64,000 nucleotides of DNA, from assembly GCA_964530725.1 (NCBI GenBank), contig CAZGYV010000002.1, positions 26,046 to 90,045 on the forward strand, written 5' to 3'. Below are positions 4,327-43,269 of the stretch, piece after piece (the stretch's first letter is position 1; every line of letters begins with the position of its first letter). The stretch comes from an uncultured Candidatus Saccharibacteria bacterium (GTDB lineage: Bacteria > Patescibacteriota > Saccharimonadia > CAILAD01 > CAZGYV01). The notes beneath the pieces were generated by a model that did no database searches, was not told the DNA's origin, and saw only the letters and a list, made by a program, of their open reading frames with translations. Both the position numbers and the translations under genes were made by a program.

Positions 4327-6351
4327 CTAAACTTCAATCACGACCGGCAAGACGATTGGATTGCGCTTAGTCACTTTGTAGAGGTAATTGCTTAGCTCCT
4401 CGCGCATACGAGTCTTGATGATCGGAGAATTGGCCGGCACCGAGATGTCTCGCTTTTCAAAAATATTACGGACAATTTGGCGTGATTTATTGAGCAGCTC
4501 TTCGTTGTCCTTCATATAGATAAAGCCGCGGCTGATGATGTCAGGGCTAGTTTTTAGCTTGCCGGTTTTCTTTTCAACCGTGACGATGGCCGTAAACACC
4601 CCCTCTGAAGCCATTGCCAAGCGGTCTTTCAAGACAACTTCCTGGACGTCACCAATACCAGCGCCATCAACTAATACTACGCCGGCAGCGACTTTTTTAC
4701 CTTCCTTGATGCCCTCTTTGGTGAGCTCTAGGGTTTGGCCATTTTCGATCATGAAAACATTTTTCGGATCAACAATACCGCTGCGCTTAGCGATTTCGGC
4801 ATTGTGCACCATGTGGTGGATTTCGCCGTGAATCGGCAGGTAGTATTTCGGCCGGATAATATTGATCATCTCCATCACTTCGTCGTAATAAGCGTGCCCC
4901 GAGGTGTGCATAATGCCAAGATCGTCAAAGCCACGCATACCATTTTGGTAAACATACGGGCCCCAGCGCAACAGATTATCAACCATGCTATAGACGTCTT
5001 TTTCGTTGCCTGGAATAATCGATGAGCTCAATACTACAACATCGGTCGGTTTTAATTTGATGTCTCTGTGCTCACCGCGGCCCATACGATTGAGCACCGC
5101 CATTTCCTCACCCTGCGAGCCAGTCGCCAGCACAGCTATCTCGCTGTCCTGATATTTGTTGACATCAGTGGCTTTAATCACGAGGCCAGCTGGAATTTTA
5201 ATGTAGCCAAATTTGACCGCCAGCTCAGCATTGGACAAGATACTGCGACCAACTATCACCAGCTTGCGCTTGGCTTTGGCCACCGCGTCAATAATAATCT
5301 GCATACGATTGACCTGGCTCGAGAAGGACGAGATGATAACCCGCTTGTTGTAATTGCGCACGAAGATCTCGTCGATCGTGTCAGTGATCTCCTGCTCGCG
5401 CGGGCTGTGTCCGGTCTGCTCGCAACTCGTACTATCACACATCAAAAGTGCCACTCCCTCGTCGCCGATTTCGCGCAAACGTTTGATATTACTCTCTTTA
5501 CCGTCAATCGGCTCAGGGTCGAAACGCCAATCGCCAGTATTGACGATCGTACCGACCGGCGTACGAATAACCAGCGCGCAAGAGTCCGGAATCGAGTGGG
5601 TAATGCGCACAAATTCGATCGAAAAGGCACCCAGCTGAATCTTTTGGCCTAAATCCTGATCGACAATATGCATTTCTGGCTTAAAGGGCAAGCGGTATTC
5701 AGTCAACATGCGCTCGATGAACTTAATCGTGAATTTAGCACCGTAAATCGGAGCTGGTAATTTTGGCAAAATAAATGGAATGCCGCCGATGTGGTCCAAG
5801 TGGGCATGAGTTATTAGGTGACCGCGAACCTTGTGCTTGCGCTCTTCCAAATAACTAATGTCAGGCAAAATGTAATCGATACCCGGCAAATCGGGTCCGG
5901 GGAACATGAAGCCCAAGTCCATCACGATGATGTCATCTTCGTATTCCAGGGCGCAAACGTTTTTGCCAATCTGGCCTAAGCCTCCTAGCGGGATAATTTT
6001 TAGCTTGCCGGCATCGATCTTGGATAGTCTCGGCGAGCTGGCCGGCTTAGCGGAGTCTGATTTGGAATTGAAGTTACCATCCATGTAGTTCGGCCTGGAA
6101 AAACGATTCTGGCGCTGAGAACGCGACGAGCCATTGCCTGGCTTGCCGTTTGAGCTTTGGCGGCGATTAGGCTGCCGCGCGGTATTGTTAGTTTTAGCCG
6201 AGGTCCGGCGCGAACTACCGGCTTGGTCGCCAGCTTGTCCACCAGTTTGATTGCTATTTTGGACCGCCTTTGCAGGGCGGGTTGGTTTTTTTGTGCCACT
6301 AAGGCCTAAATCTTCTTCTCTTAGCGGTCTTGATGATAATGAATCTGTCAT
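4327..6351 (-). CDS. rnj: Ribonuclease J (metallo-beta-lactamase/beta-CASP RNase) with a ~115-aa low-complexity N-terminal extension
   Basis: HxHxDH motif (ITHAHLDHIGG) and beta-CASP region. 674 aa, of which the first ~115 are S/N/Q/R/G-rich. Confidence 0.85.
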   Translation of the reverse strand: MTDSLSSRPLREEDLGLSGTKKPTRPAKAVQNSNQTGGQAGDQAGSSRRTSAKTNNTARQPNRRQSSNGKPGNGSSRSQRQNRFSRPNYMDGNFNSKSDSAKPASSPRLSKIDAGKLKIIPLGGLGQIGKNVCALEYEDDIIVMDLGFMFPGPDLPGIDYILPDISYLEERKHKVRGHLITHAHLDHIGGIPFILPKLPAPIYGAKFTIKFIERMLTEYRLPFKPEMHIVDQDLGQKIQLGAFSIEFVRITHSIPDSCALVIRTPVGTIVNTGDWRFDPEPIDGKESNIKRLREIGDEGVALLMCDSTSCEQTGHSPREQEITDTIDEIFVRNYNKRVIISSFSSQVNRMQIIIDAVAKAKRKLVIVGRSILSNAELAVKFGYIKIPAGLVIKATDVNKYQDSEIAVLATGSQGEEMAVLNRMGRGEHRDIKLKPTDVVVLSSSIIPGNEKDVYSMVDNLLRWGPYVYQNGMRGFDDLGIMHTSGHAYYDEVMEMINIIRPKYYLPIHGEIHHMVHNAEIAKRSGIVDPKNVFMIENGQTLELTKEGIKEGKKVAAGVVLVDGAGIGDVQEVVLKDRLAMASEGVFTAIVTVEKKTGKLKTSPDIISRGFIYMKDNEELLNKSRQIVRNIFEKRDISVPANSPIIKTRMREELSNYLYKVTKRNPIVLPVVIEV

Positions 6352-10829: not shown

Positions 10830-11807
10830 TTAACCTCGCATGGAAGCTAGTGGTGTCTGTGGCATCGAGGGCTCTAAGTGGACTGGCGCGTTAGCGGACA
10901 GAGCGCTCGAGTTCACCGGTCGCGCCGTTGATTCTGCCGGCAAATGGTCCGATGGATTTACCTGATTCGAGACCTGTTGAGGACCGTTCAATCGTGCCGG
11001 TGGGTGGTTTATGGGCTTTTTTTTTGACCTCGAGTCGGCCTGACCATGCCCATTCTCAGATGAATAAAGCACTTTGACAATTTCTTGCTGCTTAGCGCCA
11101 GCTGCCATTAGCTGAGCTGCTACCGTCATCGCCTTGGGGGTCGTGTTGGGCGCGCTGAAGCGATTGGTGCTGGCCATAATGCCGGCTAGCATCGCCGTCG
11201 CGATGTGGGCGTCAATCAAGCCCTGGCCAAGAGATTCGGTGATCGAGACGAGTATTTCCGCAACACTAGCAGCCGACTGATCGACCAAGTTAACCGAGCC
11301 GTAGCTGTCATTAATACGATGGTAATCAATATTGATTAAATGAATGCCATCAAAGATCGTCGGATTAGCTTCGTGCAAGCGATCAAGCTTAGTCAGGCTC
11401 GGTACGCCGATCGCGATAACGAGGTCAAACTGATAAGCCCCGTAGCCATAGCTGGCGTCTTGAGCGGTAAAATTGCCTTGGTGTGGCGTCACCACGATAT
11501 TGAGCTTACCGTCCTCGATCGTGTATTTGAGCTTATCGACCGTTACCTTGCTCATATCAAGGCTGATTATAAAATCGCGCACCCCATCAAGACCCTGACT
11601 AATCTTGGTAGTATCAAGGATCGGAGCGATTTTAGGCAAGCTATCGCTCACGATCGCGTAGGCGTTCTTGCCCAGCTTAGTCAAAATCGCCTGCATGGCG
11701 ACTAGGCTGGCAAGCTGATCATTATTAGGTTCGCGGCCAGTCACGAGCAAAATCGTGCTGGCTTGGCGAATTAATTCTGTAACCTGTTGTTTAGGTGTTA
11801 ATTCCAT
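10830..11807 (-). CDS. nrnA: DHH-family phosphoesterase (NrnA-like nanoRNase / pAp phosphatase) with a low-complexity C-terminal tail
   Basis: DHH motifs (INIDYHRINDSYG) and a DHHA1-like region. The last ~80 aa are P/S/N/Q-rich. The stop abuts the truB start. Confidence 0.7.
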   Translation of the reverse strand: MELTPKQQVTELIRQASTILLVTGREPNNDQLASLVAMQAILTKLGKNAYAIVSDSLPKIAPILDTTKISQGLDGVRDFIISLDMSKVTVDKLKYTIEDGKLNIVVTPHQGNFTAQDASYGYGAYQFDLVIAIGVPSLTKLDRLHEANPTIFDGIHLINIDYHRINDSYGSVNLVDQSAASVAEILVSITESLGQGLIDAHIATAMLAGIMASTNRFSAPNTTPKAMTVAAQLMAAGAKQQEIVKVLYSSENGHGQADSRSKKKPINHPPARLNGPQQVSNQVNPSDHLPAESTARPVNSSALSANAPVHLEPSMPQTPLASMRG

Positions 11808-11881
11808 AGTTTTTTAAAATAGACAATGGGTGATTGTATCAAAAGATAAGCATTTTGTCAAGTAGGGATAGTGGTTATGTT

Positions 11882-11907
11882 AAAAGAAAAAGCCCATCTT
11901 GAGGGCT
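11882..11907 (-). terminator. Rho-independent terminator of the minus-strand structured RNA
   Basis: Minus strand: hairpin AGCCC-UCAAGAU-GGGCU followed by UUUUUCUUUU. Confidence 0.55.
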
Positions 11908-11911
11908 AAAA

Positions 11912-12490
11912 ACCTTCAAAATGGACTCAGGTGGAGTGGAAGCGGAGGGCATCAAACCTAGATGTAGGCAGGTGACGCCCTCGACGCTTCCTTCGGGCTT
12001 ACACCTCAATGCGCAAGCGCACTGAAACCCAGGAGAGAACCTCGATCTCGGACGAGGACCCCCCTTGTCTCACCAGCGATTACCAGGCACTAGTGAGATC
12101 TTACAAGAGGAGGTGGCTGCCGGAGCTTGAAAGCCCGACCCTAAAGCTTAAGCTCTAGCTCCGGCAGCCGAATCGCGCAGACTGGCGACCCTCCTCTTGG
12201 CTCTTAAGCCACCCTTGCGCAGCTACTGCCAGTGAGGCGATGATTCGCAAGCTCACCAACAGCCCACCCGCGCAAAACTCAAGAGCCTTCCTCTTACTCA
12301 GCGTCTTCCAAGGAAGGGGCAGAGCAAGGAAACCTGGCGAGGACCCCATGACTGGGAGGAAACAGGGTCCTCGCCTACAGACTTCTCCCTGGCTACGGCG
12401 ATGCGGATCGCCGCGGCGACGGGGCTGGGAGTATCCTTATGTATGAGAGAAGTCTGGCGGCTCTCCTGTCCACTAGGGAGCAGGAGAGAG
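11912..12490 (-). ncRNA. rnpB: Large structured non-coding RNA with its own promoter and terminator; candidate RNase P RNA (rnpB), assignment tentative
   Basis: There is no credible ORF. A strong sigma70 promoter lies upstream and a terminator downstream on the minus strand. Minus-strand motifs resemble RNase P: GGGAGAAGUCUGUAGGCGAGG resembles the P4 5' strand GGAGGAAAGUCCGGGCUCC. AAGGGUGGCUUAAGAGCC resembles GGGUGCGGUAAGAGCGCACC. CCUGGUAAUCGCUGG resembles CCAGGUAACGCCUGG. UGUAGGC can pair with the distal GCCUACA as a P4-like long-range helix, and the 5' GUGGA..GGAG can pair with the 3' CUCC..UCCAC as a P1-like helix. Motif order and the ~580-nt length are not fully canonical. Confidence 0.4.
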
Positions 12491-12497
12491 TGCCGCT

Positions 12498-12526
12498 ATA
12501 ATACACCCGAAACCAAGACGAGTCAA
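12498..12526 (-). promoter_or_regulatory. sigma70-like promoter of the structured RNA
   Basis: Minus strand reads TTGACT-17 nt-TATTAT. Confidence 0.55.
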
Positions 12527-12648
12527 TAGTTTTCTCGGTTTTATATCTAGAGTAAATTAGTCTGCCTTGAGCACTTAAGCTATTTACAAATCATTCATTT
12601 TCCGCTAAGATAGCCTTTGATCTAAAAAACAGGTAAAAGTAGTAAGTT

Positions 12649-13035
12649 ATGCCAATTATCAAATCTGCTATCAAAAGAGACCGGCAGCAAAAAAAGCGCC
12701 GCGATCGCAATATAATGATCAAGACCGGCGTCAAGATCAAGCAAAAAGCTGCTCGAAGCGCCATCGCCGATGATCCTAAAAAAGCGCAGGACGCGCTGAT
12801 TGCTGCTATTGCCGAAATTGACCGCGCGGTCAAAAAAGGCGCTCTGCACAAAAATACCGGCTCCCGTCGGAAAAGCCGCCTCACCCTAGCCTACAACAAA
12901 GCCGCCGAGAAACCTTTTGGCAGCGGCAAAGCTACTGCTGCCAAAAAGCCCGCAGTTGCCAAAAAAGCTACGGCCAAAAAGCCGGTAGCTAAGAAGCCAG
13001 CTACCAAAACCGCCGCCAAGAAAACGACTAAGTAA
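12649..13035 (+). CDS. rpsT: 30S ribosomal protein S20 with a Lys/Ala-rich histone-H1-like C-terminal extension
   Basis: The S20 core is MPIIKSAIKRDRQQKKRRDRN...ALHKNTGSRRKSRL. The ~45-aa tail is AKKPAVAKKATAKKPVAKKPATKTAAKKTTK. Confidence 0.85.
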   Translation: MPIIKSAIKRDRQQKKRRDRNIMIKTGVKIKQKAARSAIADDPKKAQDALIAAIAEIDRAVKKGALHKNTGSRRKSRLTLAYNKAAEKPFGSGKATAAKKPAVAKKATAKKPVAKKPATKTAAKKTTK

Positions 13036-38951: not shown

Positions 38952-39710
38952 ATGAGAATTACCGAGCTGGCTGAGAAATTAGAGCATTTTGGCCTCAGAG
39001 AGAAAGAAGCAAAAGTCTACCTTGCTTCTTTATTTTTGGGCCCTTCGAGCGTGCAAAAAATCGCTCAAGAAGCCGGCATCAACCGCGCCACCACCTATGT
39101 CGTGCTCGATTCCCTGGCCGAAAACGGCTTAATCTCCCAGTCGCATGAGGGCAAGAAAACCGTCTTTGTCGCCGAAGAGCCGCAGGCTATCGAGAAGCTA
39201 CTGGAGCGTCAGCAAAGGCAAATCGCCGACAACCACCGAGCACTCAGAGAACTACTGCCACGACTAGACGAAATAAGTCGCGTTGCTAAGCCGGGCGCGC
39301 CAGTGGTGCGATTTTACAAGGGTGTCGAGGGAATTTTCAACTCCTTTGACCACGCCCTGCGCCACTCGCCAGCCAAATCGACCATCCTTGGCATTAGCAA
39401 TTACGACGCCGCTCAAAAATACTACGCTGGGCGGGTCTTCAAAGAAAAACCTAAGCGATTAAAGAAAAAAATTTCTTACAAACTACTCTATTCGTCAGCC
39501 AGCGAATCCTATCCGTCAGACAAAAAGAAACTGCGCGAGACTATTCGCCTGGAGACGCCATTTAAGGCCGACATCACCATCTATGATCGTCATGTCTGCT
39601 TTGTCACCTATGACGAAAACGAACCGATCGCGACCATGATCGATAATGCCGACATCGCAGGCGTGATGGCCCAGCTCTTCGAGCTGATCTGGCAAGACCG
39701 CCAAGCCTAA
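38952..39710 (+). CDS. TrmB-family transcriptional regulator
   Basis: N-terminal winged HTH LGLREKEAKVYLASLFLGPSSVQKIAQEAGINRATTYVVLDSLAENGLI and a C-terminal TrmB-type domain. Confidence 0.65.
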   Translation: MRITELAEKLEHFGLREKEAKVYLASLFLGPSSVQKIAQEAGINRATTYVVLDSLAENGLISQSHEGKKTVFVAEEPQAIEKLLERQQRQIADNHRALRELLPRLDEISRVAKPGAPVVRFYKGVEGIFNSFDHALRHSPAKSTILGISNYDAAQKYYAGRVFKEKPKRLKKKISYKLLYSSASESYPSDKKKLRETIRLETPFKADITIYDRHVCFVTYDENEPIATMIDNADIAGVMAQLFELIWQDRQA

Positions 39711-39724
39711 ACTGTCAACTTAGT

Positions 39725-39752
39725 TTGACAAAACATACGAAAATGCTATTAT
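39725..39752 (+). promoter_or_regulatory. sigma70-like promoter of the large ncRNA candidate
   Basis: TTGACA-16/17 nt-TATTAT. Confidence 0.45.
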
Positions 39753-39759
39753 TTTATTA

Positions 39760-40265
39760 TCCGCTGCCCTAGAGTAGCGGCGCCCTATCCCTACCCAAGG
39801 GAGTAAACATGAGGTTAACAAAGGTGGGTGGCGACTCGTAGTCGTCGTTTCGATCTAAGAAGCGTTAAGCTGATTTTCAAGGCATCTATCAGGCCAGAGA
39901 TGGCATGATAGCAATTATTTAGGTGGCAAGCCTTGAAGCCAGCTGCTGCCGAGTGGATGCCTTAAGCCTTCCCTGCCCCCATAAGCGTCTAATGGCGCCA
40001 GGGCAGATGTGGCGAAAAAGGAGTGGCAACCACGAGCAAAAGCTTCGATGAGTGATTGAGACACGATAGTCGTCACATCATAGAGCAGTAACTGGCGCGA
40101 TGAGCTAAAAGCGCCTGCCAACAAGATTGGCAGTGCGAAAAGCCCAAGCGCGCCGACTCCTCAAGAAAGCGAGCCACCCGCTAACAAAAGTGCTTTGACG
40201 GCAGCACTCCGAAATGCCGTCTCACTTAGCAGCCTTATCGACCTTGTTGTCGATAGGCTGTTTTT
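39760..40265 (+). ncRNA. ~500-nt structured non-coding RNA candidate of unknown class, promoter- and terminator-bounded
   Basis: No + ORF of 60 aa or more and no RBS-led ORF. Ends in the terminator ccttatcgac-cttgtt-gtcgatagg-ctgTTTTT (40233-40265). Long-range complementarity GGUGGGUGGC (~39835) / GCCACCCGCU (~40190), and the 5' GCUGCC pairs with the 3' GGCAGC. Several internal hairpins. Confidence 0.45.
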
Positions 40266-40364
40266 ACATACCCAAGTCGATATTTATGTTAATTATTTTT
40301 GACTGTTTTATAGGTGTTTTATTAAGATTATTTAACTTTTTTATGATTTTTTTGTCAATTTTAC

Positions 40365-40393
40365 TTGACAGTTTTTTGATAGTTAATTATACT
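40365..40393 (+). promoter_or_regulatory. sigma70-like promoter upstream of the small-peptide cluster
   Basis: TTGACA-17 nt-TATACT. The downstream leader has G/C-rich hairpins (ggaggggttggttg...cagccgaacccctcc). Confidence 0.45.
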
Positions 40394-40580
40394 CTTATTA
40401 TCTATCGCAAATGATAGAGTACGTTGACCGAAACGGAGGGGTTGGTTGAAAACTAAAAAACCAGCCGAACCCCTCCCCTCTCCAGGGGAGGAGGTGGATA
40501 TAGATCCGCTCACAACCGGACCGTGGTTGTGATGTTAGTAGCTCTTTAGTTAGCCACAGGCACTACGAAAGGATGCCAAA

Positions 40581-40760
40581 ATGTGTGATGACCTAGAAGA
40601 AACTCCTCCTGATACAGGCACAAACATCTGTGACCTATCAGATATTTCCACTGGCAGTCCAAGAGACTACGCCGGTGGAGATTGTAACGACGACAACGTG
40701 GGCTTCTTCGAGCCCAGACGAGCCGTAGAACGACAAGGAGCGCTCGCGAGAGCGGCGTAA
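40581..40760 (+). CDS. Small acidic Cys-containing peptide (59 aa), first of three tandem small ORFs
   Basis: MCDDLEETPPDTGTNICDLSDISTGSPRDYAGGDCNDDNVGFFEPRRAVERQGALARAA. Below the 60-aa track threshold, found by reading. Confidence 0.35.
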   Translation: MCDDLEETPPDTGTNICDLSDISTGSPRDYAGGDCNDDNVGFFEPRRAVERQGALARAA

Positions 40761-40761
40761 A

Positions 40762-40857
40762 ATGTTGCCCTGTCCAGAAGATGGGCTATGGTGCAGTCCT
40801 GGCCCAGACGACATCGAGGAATTCTTCCCGACAGAAGGAGGAAGCGATCCTCTCTAA
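40762..40857 (+). CDS. Small acidic Cys-containing peptide (31 aa)
   Basis: MLPCPEDGLWCSPGPDDIEEFFPTEGGSDPL. Starts 1 nt after the previous stop. Shares the EEFFP/GFFEP motif with the first peptide. Confidence 0.3.
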   Translation: MLPCPEDGLWCSPGPDDIEEFFPTEGGSDPL

Positions 40858-40895
40858 CCAGACATGTTAGTATCGCCTACTACAAGGAGATAAAA

Positions 40896-40985
40896 ATGGC
40901 TGACGTCGAATACGACAACGGCACCGGCGAGATGGACGAGTGGGACGGAGCCAACTGGGGCTTCGGCGGCTCTTCCCCTAAGTGA
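40896..40985 (+). CDS. Small acidic peptide (29 aa) with a strong RBS
   Basis: AAGGAG-7 nt-ATG. Product MADVEYDNGTGEMDEWDGANWGFGGSSPK. It is the C-terminal part of track ORF 40788..40985. Confidence 0.4.
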   Translation: MADVEYDNGTGEMDEWDGANWGFGGSSPK

Positions 40986-41011
40986 CCAAGTAGTCACCGG
41001 TTAATTACCAC

Positions 41012-41047
41012 GGACACGAGACAAGAACTCGTGTCCGTTTTTATTTT
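41012..41047 (+). terminator. Intrinsic terminator after the small-peptide cluster
   Basis: ggacacgag-acaagaa-ctcgtgtcc followed by GTTTTTATTTT. Confidence 0.55.
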
Positions 41048-42474: not shown

Positions 42475-43269
42475 ATGATTCGAGCGAGTCGTGACTATTT
42501 GCTGCCGGGCGAGGTGGCCAAGCTGCTTTTCGTCAGCCCTAAAACGATTAGCCGCTGGGCAGACAAGGGATATCTGCCTTACGCCCTAACACCCGAGGGT
42601 CATCGTCGCTTCGACAGGGTTGAGATTTACAGAATTCGCGACGAACTAACTGGTGGCAAACCTAAGCAAGCTCCAAAGGGCACTGAGAGCCAGTCGTCGA
42701 ACCTGCCCATCCTGCTTCTGACCGGGCCGTCGGGCGTCGGCAAGGATACGGTGCTCAGAGCGCTCATCAAGCACCATCCATCGAGGTTGGCCGGAATGGT
42801 CTCGGCCACGACACGGCAACCAAGGAAGGGCGAATGTGACGGTAGGGACTACTTTTTTATCAAAGAGTCTGAATTTCGGCTGATGGAGGCGGCTGGCGAA
42901 TTCGTTGAAACTACCAGATTCAATGGTGTTCGCTACGGCACACCAAAAAGCGAGCTTGACCGCATCAGCAGGGACGGCAAGCAAGCCATTCTGTGCTGCG
43001 ACACGGCCGGTGTCGATAACCTGATCGCGCTCGGCGTGTCATTTCGAGCCGTTTTCCTCGATGTCACAACCCGTGTCCAGGCCCAGCGCATATGCACGCG
43101 CGATCCTCAGATCAGCGAAGCCGAGCTCAACGGACGGCTGCTGAGATCGAGTGATGAGAAAGCCTGGCTCGGACACCGTATCGGGCACCTACCAATTTGG
43201 CCGGTGACAAACAACGGCGAGCTTGAAGAAACCCTGCGGCGGGTCGAGGAGATCTTCGACTTGGCTTAA
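42475..43269 (+). CDS. gmk: Fusion protein: N-terminal excisionase/MerR-type HTH plus guanylate kinase
   Basis: Residues 10-60 LLPGEVAKLLFVSPKTISRWADKGYLPYALTPEGHRRFDRVEI form an HTH_17/excisionase-like domain. Then the Gmk P-loop LLLTGPSGVGKDT, SATTRQPRKGECDGRDYFFI and the GMP-binding region. Confidence 0.7.
   Translation: MIRASRDYLLPGEVAKLLFVSPKTISRWADKGYLPYALTPEGHRRFDRVEIYRIRDELTGGKPKQAPKGTESQSSNLPILLLTGPSGVGKDTVLRALIKHHPSRLAGMVSATTRQPRKGECDGRDYFFIKESEFRLMEAAGEFVETTRFNGVRYGTPKSELDRISRDGKQAILCCDTAGVDNLIALGVSFRAVFLDVTTRVQAQRICTRDPQISEAELNGRLLRSSDEKAWLGHRIGHLPIWPVTNNGELEETLRRVEEIFDLA

Follow-up and report, generated by a model that had tools for sequence, protein, structure and literature searches.

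The 64,000-nt stretch of contig CAZGYV010000002.1 analysed here, from an uncultured Candidatus Saccharibacteria bacterium, contains, directly after the gene of a TrmBL2-like winged-helix regulator, a segment that was studied on the forward strand as the gene of a large structured RNA. The whole stretch is called the window, and all coordinates are positions in it. The evidence supports well the conclusion that this bacterium, a member of the Saccharimonadia within the Candidate Phyla Radiation (CPR), has at this locus an independently transcribed RNA gene of about 505 nt whose product folds strongly. It likewise supports well the assignment of this RNA to a previously uncatalogued, Patescibacteria-wide family of regulator-linked, independently transcribed and structured RNAs. 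Near the 5' end of the RNA a Shine–Dalgarno (SD) sequence precedes an open reading frame (ORF) of only ten codons, hereafter the mini-ORF.

The RNA gene

The following elements of the RNA were located.

39725–39752, forward strand: promoter P1, with TTGACA, a 16-nt spacer and a TG-extended TATTAT; predicted transcription start near 39759
39759–40265, forward strand: RNA gene of about 505 nt, bounded by promoter and terminator
39761–39780, forward strand: 5' hairpin P0, CCGCU with AGCGG (39761–39765 with 39776–39780), found in all four clade members with differing stem sequences
39788–39803, forward strand: SD hairpin, UCCCU with AGGGA, half-sequestering the SD GGGAG (39799–39803), about 40 nt into the RNA
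39809–39841, forward strand: mini-ORF, AUG to UAG, ten codons, MRLTKVGGDS*
39823–39832, forward strand: 5' strand of the long-range helix, inside the mini-ORF and mainly in codons 6–8
39832–39844, forward strand: hairpin P3, CGAC with GUCG, whose loop and closing pair contain the stop codon UAG; equivalents with differing stems are found in all four clade members
39845–40172, forward strand: central domain with several branches, closed off by the long-range helix and evolving fast (43–46% identity to clade relatives)
40173–40182, forward strand: 3' strand of the long-range helix, from the fold and from comparison within the clade
40189–40221, forward strand: H-type pseudoknot just before the terminator, stem S1 40189–40194 with 40203–40208 and stem S2 40197–40202 with 40216–40221
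40230–40265, forward strand: intrinsic terminator, a GC-rich hairpin (40230–40260) followed by TTTTT (40261–40265)

Promoter P1 is of the sigma-70 type (TTGACA-16-TGcTATTAT), with an extended -10 element and a match to 11 of 12 consensus positions, and its equivalent in relatives lies 20–60 nt past the stop codon of the regulator. A sequence-only reading made before this analysis had described the region as free of ORFs and equipped with a TTGACA/TATTAT promoter and a hairpin-TTTTT terminator. Both signals are present at the positions listed. The absence of ORFs holds for long ones, none of which is conserved in a single frame or has a Pfam match, and it fails at 39809–39841, where a conserved SD precedes the ten-codon ORF. 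A hidden protein gene on either strand was rejected: a six-frame comparison of the relatives gives matches in several frames and on both strands, with no Pfam match, so that conservation is at the nucleotide level only. The description of the locus as an independent, unclassified RNA, about 500 nt long and highly structured, with a promoter and a terminator of its own and a genuine long-range helix, is thus supported. It is the label "non-coding" that becomes questionable, the best-conserved element at the 5' end being an initiation region for translation together with a very small ORF, the feature by which the family is most clearly set apart.

Fold of the RNA

Folded as the forward-strand transcript, the RNA has a minimum free energy (MFE) of -194.5 kcal/mol and z = -5.3, and none of 100 dinucleotide shuffles folds as well. 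The antisense strand is nearly as foldable (z = -4.8), and the RNA was assigned to the forward strand because the promoter, the terminator and the mini-ORF and structural features lie there.

The MFE structure includes a long-range helix of 10 bp, GGUGGGUGGC (39823–39832) with GCCACCCGCU (40173–40182), in which eight of the ten pairs have a base-pair probability of 0.90–0.93 and a ninth has one of 0.63. An equivalent helix was predicted independently in every one of the four members of the immediate clade, at probabilities of 0.8–1.0 and with different partner sequences, and the 10-bp pairing first proposed by eye is borne out by both results. The closing helix proposed together with it, GCUGCC (39763–39768) with GGCAGC (40200–40205), did not survive the comparison. 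Both strings exist, and their bases belong to P0 and to the 3' pseudoknot; relatives contain no counterpart of the closing helix, and in them P0 and the pseudoknot recur with compensatory sequence. Both pseudoknot stems, which were identified by hand without a pseudoknot-aware program, are found at the same place in 4/4 clade RNAs, and the stem sequences of the window are wholly different from those of its relatives. A CCC:GGG hairpin over the SD is also common to the four RNAs, and a helix analogous to P3 covaries in the type-A domain of sister clades (see below).

In the central domain, positions 40015–40058 contain an SD-like AAGGAG (40018–40023), a GUGG-CAA-CCAC hairpin and then AUG-AGU-GAU-UGA (40047–40058, MSD*), 24 nt past the SD. 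Speculatively, this element could represent a second mini-ORF module that has decayed or is spaced by a hairpin, comparable to the second modules of sister clades.

The mini-ORF and its relation to the fold

The SD GGGAG ends 5 nt before the AUG of the mini-ORF and has an anti-SD duplex energy of -7.9 kcal/mol; at an SD threshold of -8 kcal/mol the window RNA has this kind of site only once. An in-frame internal GUG at 39824 would yield VGGDS*. The length of ten codons is kept in all four clade members (MRLTKVGGDS, MRYTKVGTGI, MGMIKVGGGI and MGISRMGGDI), which places the window at the long end of the length distribution of the family, and the clade ORFs differ synonymously (ACA/ACG, AAG/AAA). 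From these features we infer that the mini-ORF is translated.

Translation of the mini-ORF and formation of the long-range helix should be mutually exclusive, because codons 6–8 form most of the 5' strand of that helix and the stop codon lies in P3. When the footprint of a ribosome on the mini-ORF was forced to be single-stranded, 27–39 kcal/mol of predicted structure was lost in the four clade RNAs, with the pseudoknot region and the terminator left intact. Self-attenuation of the RNA's own terminator was rejected for this reason, the predicted terminator being unaffected by the constraint.

Relatives in the Saccharimonadia

Relatives were collected through the regulator, by fetching 160 loci with an alignment of the regulator protein, where a metagenome scan with the single protein had found none. 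Searches with nhmmer from the window RNA, as a single sequence and as a three-sequence profile, retrieved the immediate clade only. In three of its loci (L001, L005 and L169) a homologous stretch without long ORFs follows directly after a regulator gene whose product is 60–62% identical to that of the window, the RNA sequences being 43–46% identical; a further locus (L174) has an overlap with the first 266 nt of the RNA, within which it does not differ from the window. All loci in which the regulator reaches about 39% identity or more to that of the window have a TTGACA-17-TAnnnT promoter 20–60 nt past its stop codon, a GC-rich RNA of 250–650 nt and a terminator. The median folding z of 32 syntenic Saccharimonadia RNAs is -6.7.

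These RNAs contain 40 SD-preceded ORFs of 2–12 codons; shuffles contain 11.7 +/- 3.3 (maximum 21), and the antisense strand has 10. Among the peptides, MDGI, MGGI, MGGY, MGGV, MGEGL and MGNGI are typical, with glycine accounting for 31% of mini-ORF residues against 8.6 +/- 3.9% in shuffles. The spacers between SD and AUG are 5–8 nt long and show no sequence conservation.

In a large subgroup the mini-ORF lies within a 5' domain of about 130 nt, termed type A, composed of helices P1 and P2, the stop hairpin, a C4/G4 hairpin and P4. It was aligned from a five-sequence seed followed by covariance-model realignment; an alignment of ten domains by MAFFT only gave no usable consensus. In the model-fitted alignment 88.9% of the cells are paired and 30 of 37 pairs have changed on both sides, a level reached by none of 500 shuffles, and slid controls are about 50% paired; pairing is weak (64.5%) in the helix by which the SD would be sequestered. 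The type-A covariance model (R1) detected further members in sister clades, solely at the start of the syntenic RNA. It gave no convincing match in 90 more distant loci, with one weak match (L152, E = 0.13), and none in the window clade.

The family across Patescibacteria

A comparable RNA lies beside the regulator gene in Doudnabacteria, Moranbacteria, Paceibacterota, Berkelbacteria and others, and the RNA adjoins an orthologue of the regulator in all loci examined. Patescibacteria-wide the RNAs are 220–650 nt long, with folding z near -6. They lie downstream of the regulator on the same strand (30 loci), downstream and convergent (30 loci; median z -5.7 for 18 such RNAs) or upstream on the same strand (about 15–20 loci). 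Outside the Saccharimonadia there are usually two modules per RNA, about 100–130 nt apart, and the peptides are MGW, MHW, MNW, MTSW, MAF and MSF, or MGD, MDG, MGG, MNG and MDD.

With a strict module defined as an SD of -8 kcal/mol or stronger and an ORF of 3–5 codons, the density over about 150 non-redundant loci is 1.96 per kb in the first 250 nt past the regulator stop and 0.66 in the next 250 nt, above a background of about 0.08, with a second peak of 0.55 per kb upstream of the regulator start codon. SD-preceded ORFs of 3–5 codons are in this way enriched about 25-fold beside the regulator gene. Among 136 non-redundant modules ORF length peaks at three codons (44 modules) and four codons (33), start codons are AUG or GUG only, and all three stop codons are in use. 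Gly, Asp and Asn account for most second codons, and the C-terminal residues fall into clade-specific classes (Ile/Tyr, Trp/Phe or Gly/Asp). SD-like sites number 84 against 56.6 in shuffles, and the excess is almost wholly linked to start codons; a multi-site sponge of the CsrB kind was rejected for that reason. It is likely that the mini-ORFs of the family engage ribosomes.

The information content of the same 136 modules is 0.8–0.9 bits at position +4, 0.4 at +5, 0.1 at +6, 0.2–0.7 at +7, 0.3 at +8 and about 0 at +9. This three-base periodicity with nearly empty third positions is the pattern expected of codons under selection and not of a fixed RNA motif. It bears directly on the proposal that the RNA is purely non-coding. 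In that case the SD, AUG and stop codon would imitate an initiation region or form a structural motif, would serve to bind a protein such as a translational repressor and would never lead to productive translation. The partial pairing of the SD, the members that have no ORF, the strong covariation and the coincidence of G-rich codons with stem strands would all fit such a mimic. It leaves unexplained the periodicity with free third positions, the use of three stop codons, the restriction to AUG and GUG, the sharp peak in ORF length and the SD–AUG spacers of 5–8 nt, which vary in both sequence and length; we consider it unlikely.

Comparison with catalogued RNAs

The size of the RNA and a long-range helix flanked by A-rich linkers could suggest a divergent RNase P RNA, a transfer-messenger RNA (tmRNA) or another catalogued large RNA (OLE, GOLLD, ROOL, HEARO or raiA), and the sequence-only reading had seen a likeness to the P1/P4 architecture of RNase P. 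At the gathering score Rfam 15 gave only tRNA in the whole 64-kb window, and at E <= 10 no match overlapped the RNA locus in the interval 39500–40600. The RNase P P4 strands CR-I (GAGGAAAGUCCGGGC) and CR-V (ACAGAANCCGGCUUA), allowing up to three mismatches, were absent from the RNA locus as well as from a second orphan RNA locus described below, their window-wide counts being at chance level, and pairing of the 5' and 3' ends of the P1 type was not supported by comparison with relatives. For tmRNA, which has a tRNA-like domain and a tag reading frame that lacks SD and AUG, ARAGORN detected nothing in the window, and RF00023 had no match there either. In 34 related loci (239 kb) Rfam found only tRNA, tmRNA and one hammerhead, none of them overlapping the homologous RNAs. 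The unclassified status of the RNA was thereby upheld against all of Rfam, including the five large families just named; the RNase P likeness was not, and membership in any catalogued class is effectively refuted. For tmRNA there is the additional point that canonical genes for it coexist with this RNA in five related loci.

Those tmRNA genes lie 1.3–3 kb downstream of the regulator–RNA pair (L013 7444–7789, L016 6993–7358, L017 7743–8090, L026 4758–5112 and L029 6068–6424), so that in several Saccharimonadia they form a recurrent RNA-gene cluster with it. Three other loci (L159 5087–5167, L051 7604–7730 and L021 3681–3761) have short matches of 81–127 nt to the full-length tmRNA model (positions 1–374, 53–75 bits), suggestive of a tRNA-like domain that stands without an mRNA-like portion. 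ARAGORN is silent at these three matches, and it also misses the full-length Rfam tmRNA of L013. The hammerhead match is of type III and lies on a Saccharibacteria contig (L024 6095–6149), at 49.6 bits against a gathering score of 48.5.

The second orphan RNA of the window, of about 600 nt, occupies 11880–12488 on the minus strand, with a TTGACT-17-TATTAT promoter at about 12525 to 12495 and a terminator at about 11905–11880, and it folds strongly (z = -9.45, MFE -311.5 kcal/mol). Judged from the ORF sequences, it looks to be placed between a gene for a 325-aa protein and a putative rpsT. Rfam at E <= 10 gave noise only over 11500–13000, with no match to any RNase P model, and by the tests run this RNA is not rnpB; the expectation that one of the two loci is rnpB found no support at either. 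The second RNA was rejected as a paralogue of the 505-nt RNA, as it has no SD-preceded mini-ORF.

The regulator, its putative operator and the downstream unit

The features flanking the RNA gene are the following.

38952–39710, forward strand: gene of the TrmBL2-like winged-helix regulator, 252 aa (Pfam TrmB, E 5.7e-14)
39713–39730: inverted repeat TGTCAA-N6-TTGACA, a putative operator read from the sequence, whose right half is the -35 box of promoter P1
40353–40393, forward strand: promoter P2, with the same palindrome as P1, preceding a small-ORF transcript

The genes upstream of the RNA are murE and that of the 252-aa TrmB-family protein. The AlphaFold model of the regulator has a predicted local distance difference test (pLDDT) value of 85.6, and its best full-length PDB matches are chains of TrmBL2 (E about 1e-13), an archaeal chromatin protein and repressor; homologues of the regulator are annotated as Saccharimonadales or Patescibacteria. 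The palindrome TGTCAA-N6-TTGACA recurs in identical form at promoter P2 (40353–40370). About 29 of 30 Saccharimonadia RNA promoters have a GTYR half-site at a fixed distance upstream of the -35 box, as do many of the P2 promoters. The operator pattern and the invariant adjacency suggest that transcription of the RNA is regulated by the TrmBL2-like protein, which would bind the P1 palindrome.

The P2 unit (40353–41045) comprises a structured leader, small acidic ORFs at 40446–40532, 40581–40760 and 40896–40985 and a terminator at 41010–41038, and it is probably co-regulated with the RNA. In two relatives the transcripts from the second promoter (L016, about 5420–5545, and L018, about 5335–5470) are nearly identical (GUCAAAGGUU..CAGUCAAGGCGCUGGGUUCUGUAAAUAUUUACA...); in these two loci the transcript looks like another structured RNA and not a protein gene. 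Further downstream in the window, 42475–43269 encodes a guanylate kinase that carries a MerR/HTH_17 DNA-binding domain as an N-terminal fusion, and in the relatives L006 and L007 this helix-turn-helix (HTH) domain is a separate gene of 68 aa just upstream.

The position of the P2 unit raises the question of a cis-acting leader, that is, an attenuator of the small-ORF operon in which translation of a leader peptide decides read-through at 40230–40265. The RNA is always co-oriented with the following transcription unit in Saccharimonadia, and the short ORF with alternative pairings is attenuator-like (L036). The downstream unit, however, has its own strong promoter P2 with the same operator, about 390 nt separate the ORF from the terminator, which the footprint leaves intact in all four clade RNAs, and the convergent RNAs of other Patescibacteria have no downstream gene. 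Attenuation in cis is accordingly judged very improbable.

Adjacency to the regulator also invites the view that the RNA is a micro-peptide gene, with the peptides (MRLTKVGGDS in the window and MGGI, MDGY, MGW or MGD elsewhere) as its products, for instance as ligands of the TrmBL2-like protein. Signalling-peptide genes likewise sit next to receptor genes. The adjacency is constant, the regulator has a C-terminal alpha/beta domain to which no ligand is assigned, the peptide classes are clade-specific and the conservation is coding-like. Peptides of 3–5 residues without an export signal, however, have low information content, their class tracks phylogeny so that co-variation with the regulator is inseparable from descent, and 250–600 nt of conserved structure would be left unexplained. 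Such a function of the peptides themselves appears distinctly unlikely.

Proposed function

The best explanation, which we put forward tentatively, is a translation-gated riboregulator or sensor linked to the TrmBL2-like regulator. The regulator would control the promoter of the RNA through the palindromic operator that overlaps the -35 box, as it would the next downstream promoter through the same operator. The finished RNA would fold into a compact body clamped by the long-range helix, with a genuine translation initiation region and a mini-ORF near its 5' end (ten codons here, 3–5 in most relatives). A ribosome on the mini-ORF would have to open the RNA, since both the clamp helix and the stop-codon hairpin share bases with the ORF. 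The conformation and the activity of the RNA would then be set by ribosome occupancy and, through it, by translational capacity or the supply of charged tRNA.

Several points weigh against this scheme. That ribosome occupancy opens the clamp and gates activity is something we infer, as is each functional step. The SD is itself predicted to be paired (the unpaired probability of its GGG is about 0 in 4/4 clade RNAs, the AUG being mostly unpaired), and the predicted terminator is unchanged with the mini-ORF occupied, so that there is no obvious output in cis. The mini-ORF of the window is atypical, with ten codons and a final Ser where relatives end in Ile, and the G-rich codons could partly reflect stem composition and not selection on the peptide. 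Of the 33 Saccharimonadia RNAs in this position, about 8 (L010, L011/L089, L012, L019, L023, L091 and L094) have no clear mini-ORF, so that the ORF may be dispensable or these RNAs may not be homologous. The covariation was counted on an alignment fitted to the model, which leans towards that structure. A stop codon always placed in a hairpin loop was rejected as a rule of the family (19 of 43, against 36–38% in controls, not significant). Finally, synteny, promoter and operator, and module architecture are what tie the window clade to the other clades, with no sequence or covariance-model match between them.

The same initiation regions could instead serve a ribosome-parking or 30S-decoy RNA, in which strong and often extended SDs (AGGAGGUGA) with ORFs too short for the ribosome to clear the SD hold ribosomes or 30S subunits, and which titrates translational capacity in ultra-small, ribosome-poor cells under control of the regulator. 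Formation of the fMet-Gly bond is slow and CPR cells hold few ribosomes. Extended SDs, ORFs of 3–5 codons, typically two per RNA and with Gly, Asp or Asn as the usual second codon, and a stand-alone transcription unit with a strong promoter fit such a device. Its capacity would be low unless the RNA were very abundant, there being 1–3 sites per RNA and one in the window RNA at -8 kcal/mol, and a decoy does not need a conserved pseudoknot and a covarying domain. We regard parking as rather unlikely.

In a broader form the proposal is that the TrmBL2-like regulator and the RNA constitute a dedicated two-gene module of the CPR in which the mini-ORFs would let the RNA directly sense or buffer ribosome availability and the supply of charged tRNA, whether as a translation-gated switch or as a ribosome-parking device, and has no counterpart among known RNA classes; this is conceivable but doubtful. 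A module of this kind might stand in for the stress-response circuitry missing from reduced genomes.

The CPR, or Patescibacteria, make up a large share of bacterial diversity, and in several of their classes the present locus indicates a conserved RNA gene that always accompanies one and the same transcription factor and in which a covarying fold goes together with ORFs close to the minimum length that can be translated. If the ORFs are translated, the family would offer a natural example of translation that appears to matter for the act itself, over a few codons, and not for the peptide. For annotation the rule that follows, applicable to thousands of CPR genomes, is to inspect the flank of the TrmBL2-like gene, and the idea is directly testable in those Saccharibacteria that are now cultivable and genetically manipulable.

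Comparison with known systems

For the family we propose the designation TrmBL2-linked mini-ORF RNA of Patescibacteria. The window RNA has its own promoter and terminator, lies next to a TrmBL2-like gene and carries a mini-ORF of at most 12 codons with a strong SD; its homology to other members is clear within its own clade, and model R1 finds the sister clades and not this one. In the literature on small RNAs, leader peptides and large non-coding RNAs of Patescibacteria or Saccharibacteria we found no report of such RNAs, and a TM7x transcriptome paper states that no small RNAs had been validated in that organism.

The present RNA is like bacterial RNase P RNA in size and in having a multi-domain fold that is closed by a long-range helix; it differs in having an SD with an ORF and in having neither a covariance-model match, CR-I and CR-V nor a supported P1. 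The CsrB/RsmZ sponges likewise display SD-like GGA or GGAGG motifs on a structured RNA, whereas here there are only 1–3 motifs, almost all with a start codon at SD spacing.

In leader-peptide attenuators the same kind of short SD-preceded ORF lies among competing helices, and the position of the ribosome decides the fold. The trpL attenuator of Sinorhizobium gives rise to stand-alone products, the rnTrpL RNA and the peTrpL peptide, and a released attenuator RNA can act in trans (PMC7298713). Of the attenuator hallmarks, the embedded SD-preceded ORF is found in our RNA and a ribosome-switched terminator or antiterminator before regulated genes is not. As to a run of codons for a sensed amino acid, glycine is enriched (31%) and the C-terminal classes with Ile, Tyr, Trp or Phe vary by clade, yet many ORFs have a single such codon. 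The RNA thus differs from attenuators in that it does not stand before a regulated operon, its ORFs have 3–10 codons without an evident regulatory-codon run, its terminator is not predicted to respond, and its 250–650 nt comprise a covarying multi-helix body and a pseudoknot.

An SD followed by very few codons is also the mark of minigenes such as bar of phage lambda (AUG-AUA-UAA) and the start-stop sites of E. coli, the latter found by retapamulin profiling (bioRxiv 10.1101/520783). Their consequences are ribosome retention and drop-off of peptidyl-tRNA; they are isolated sites, unlike the modules described here, which occur phylum-wide inside a dedicated, structured, regulator-linked RNA.

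In genetic layout there is a likeness to the dual-function small RNA SgrS/SgrT with SgrR, and also to OxyS–OxyR and GcvB–GcvA, where an RNA gene lies beside a regulator in variable orientation and the RNA may also carry an ORF. SgrT has 43 aa and SgrS is 227 nt long and Hfq-dependent, and the ORFs described here are far shorter. In the mode of action proposed, the likeness is to the mgtA leader of Salmonella with mgtL. Leaders of the mgtA riboswitch type are 5' leaders of a specific gene, with an ORF of about 17 codons, and the RNA described here has a gene of its own, which is linked to that of a transcription factor; what the two would have in common is a structured RNA whose conformation is read out jointly with the translation of a short internal ORF.

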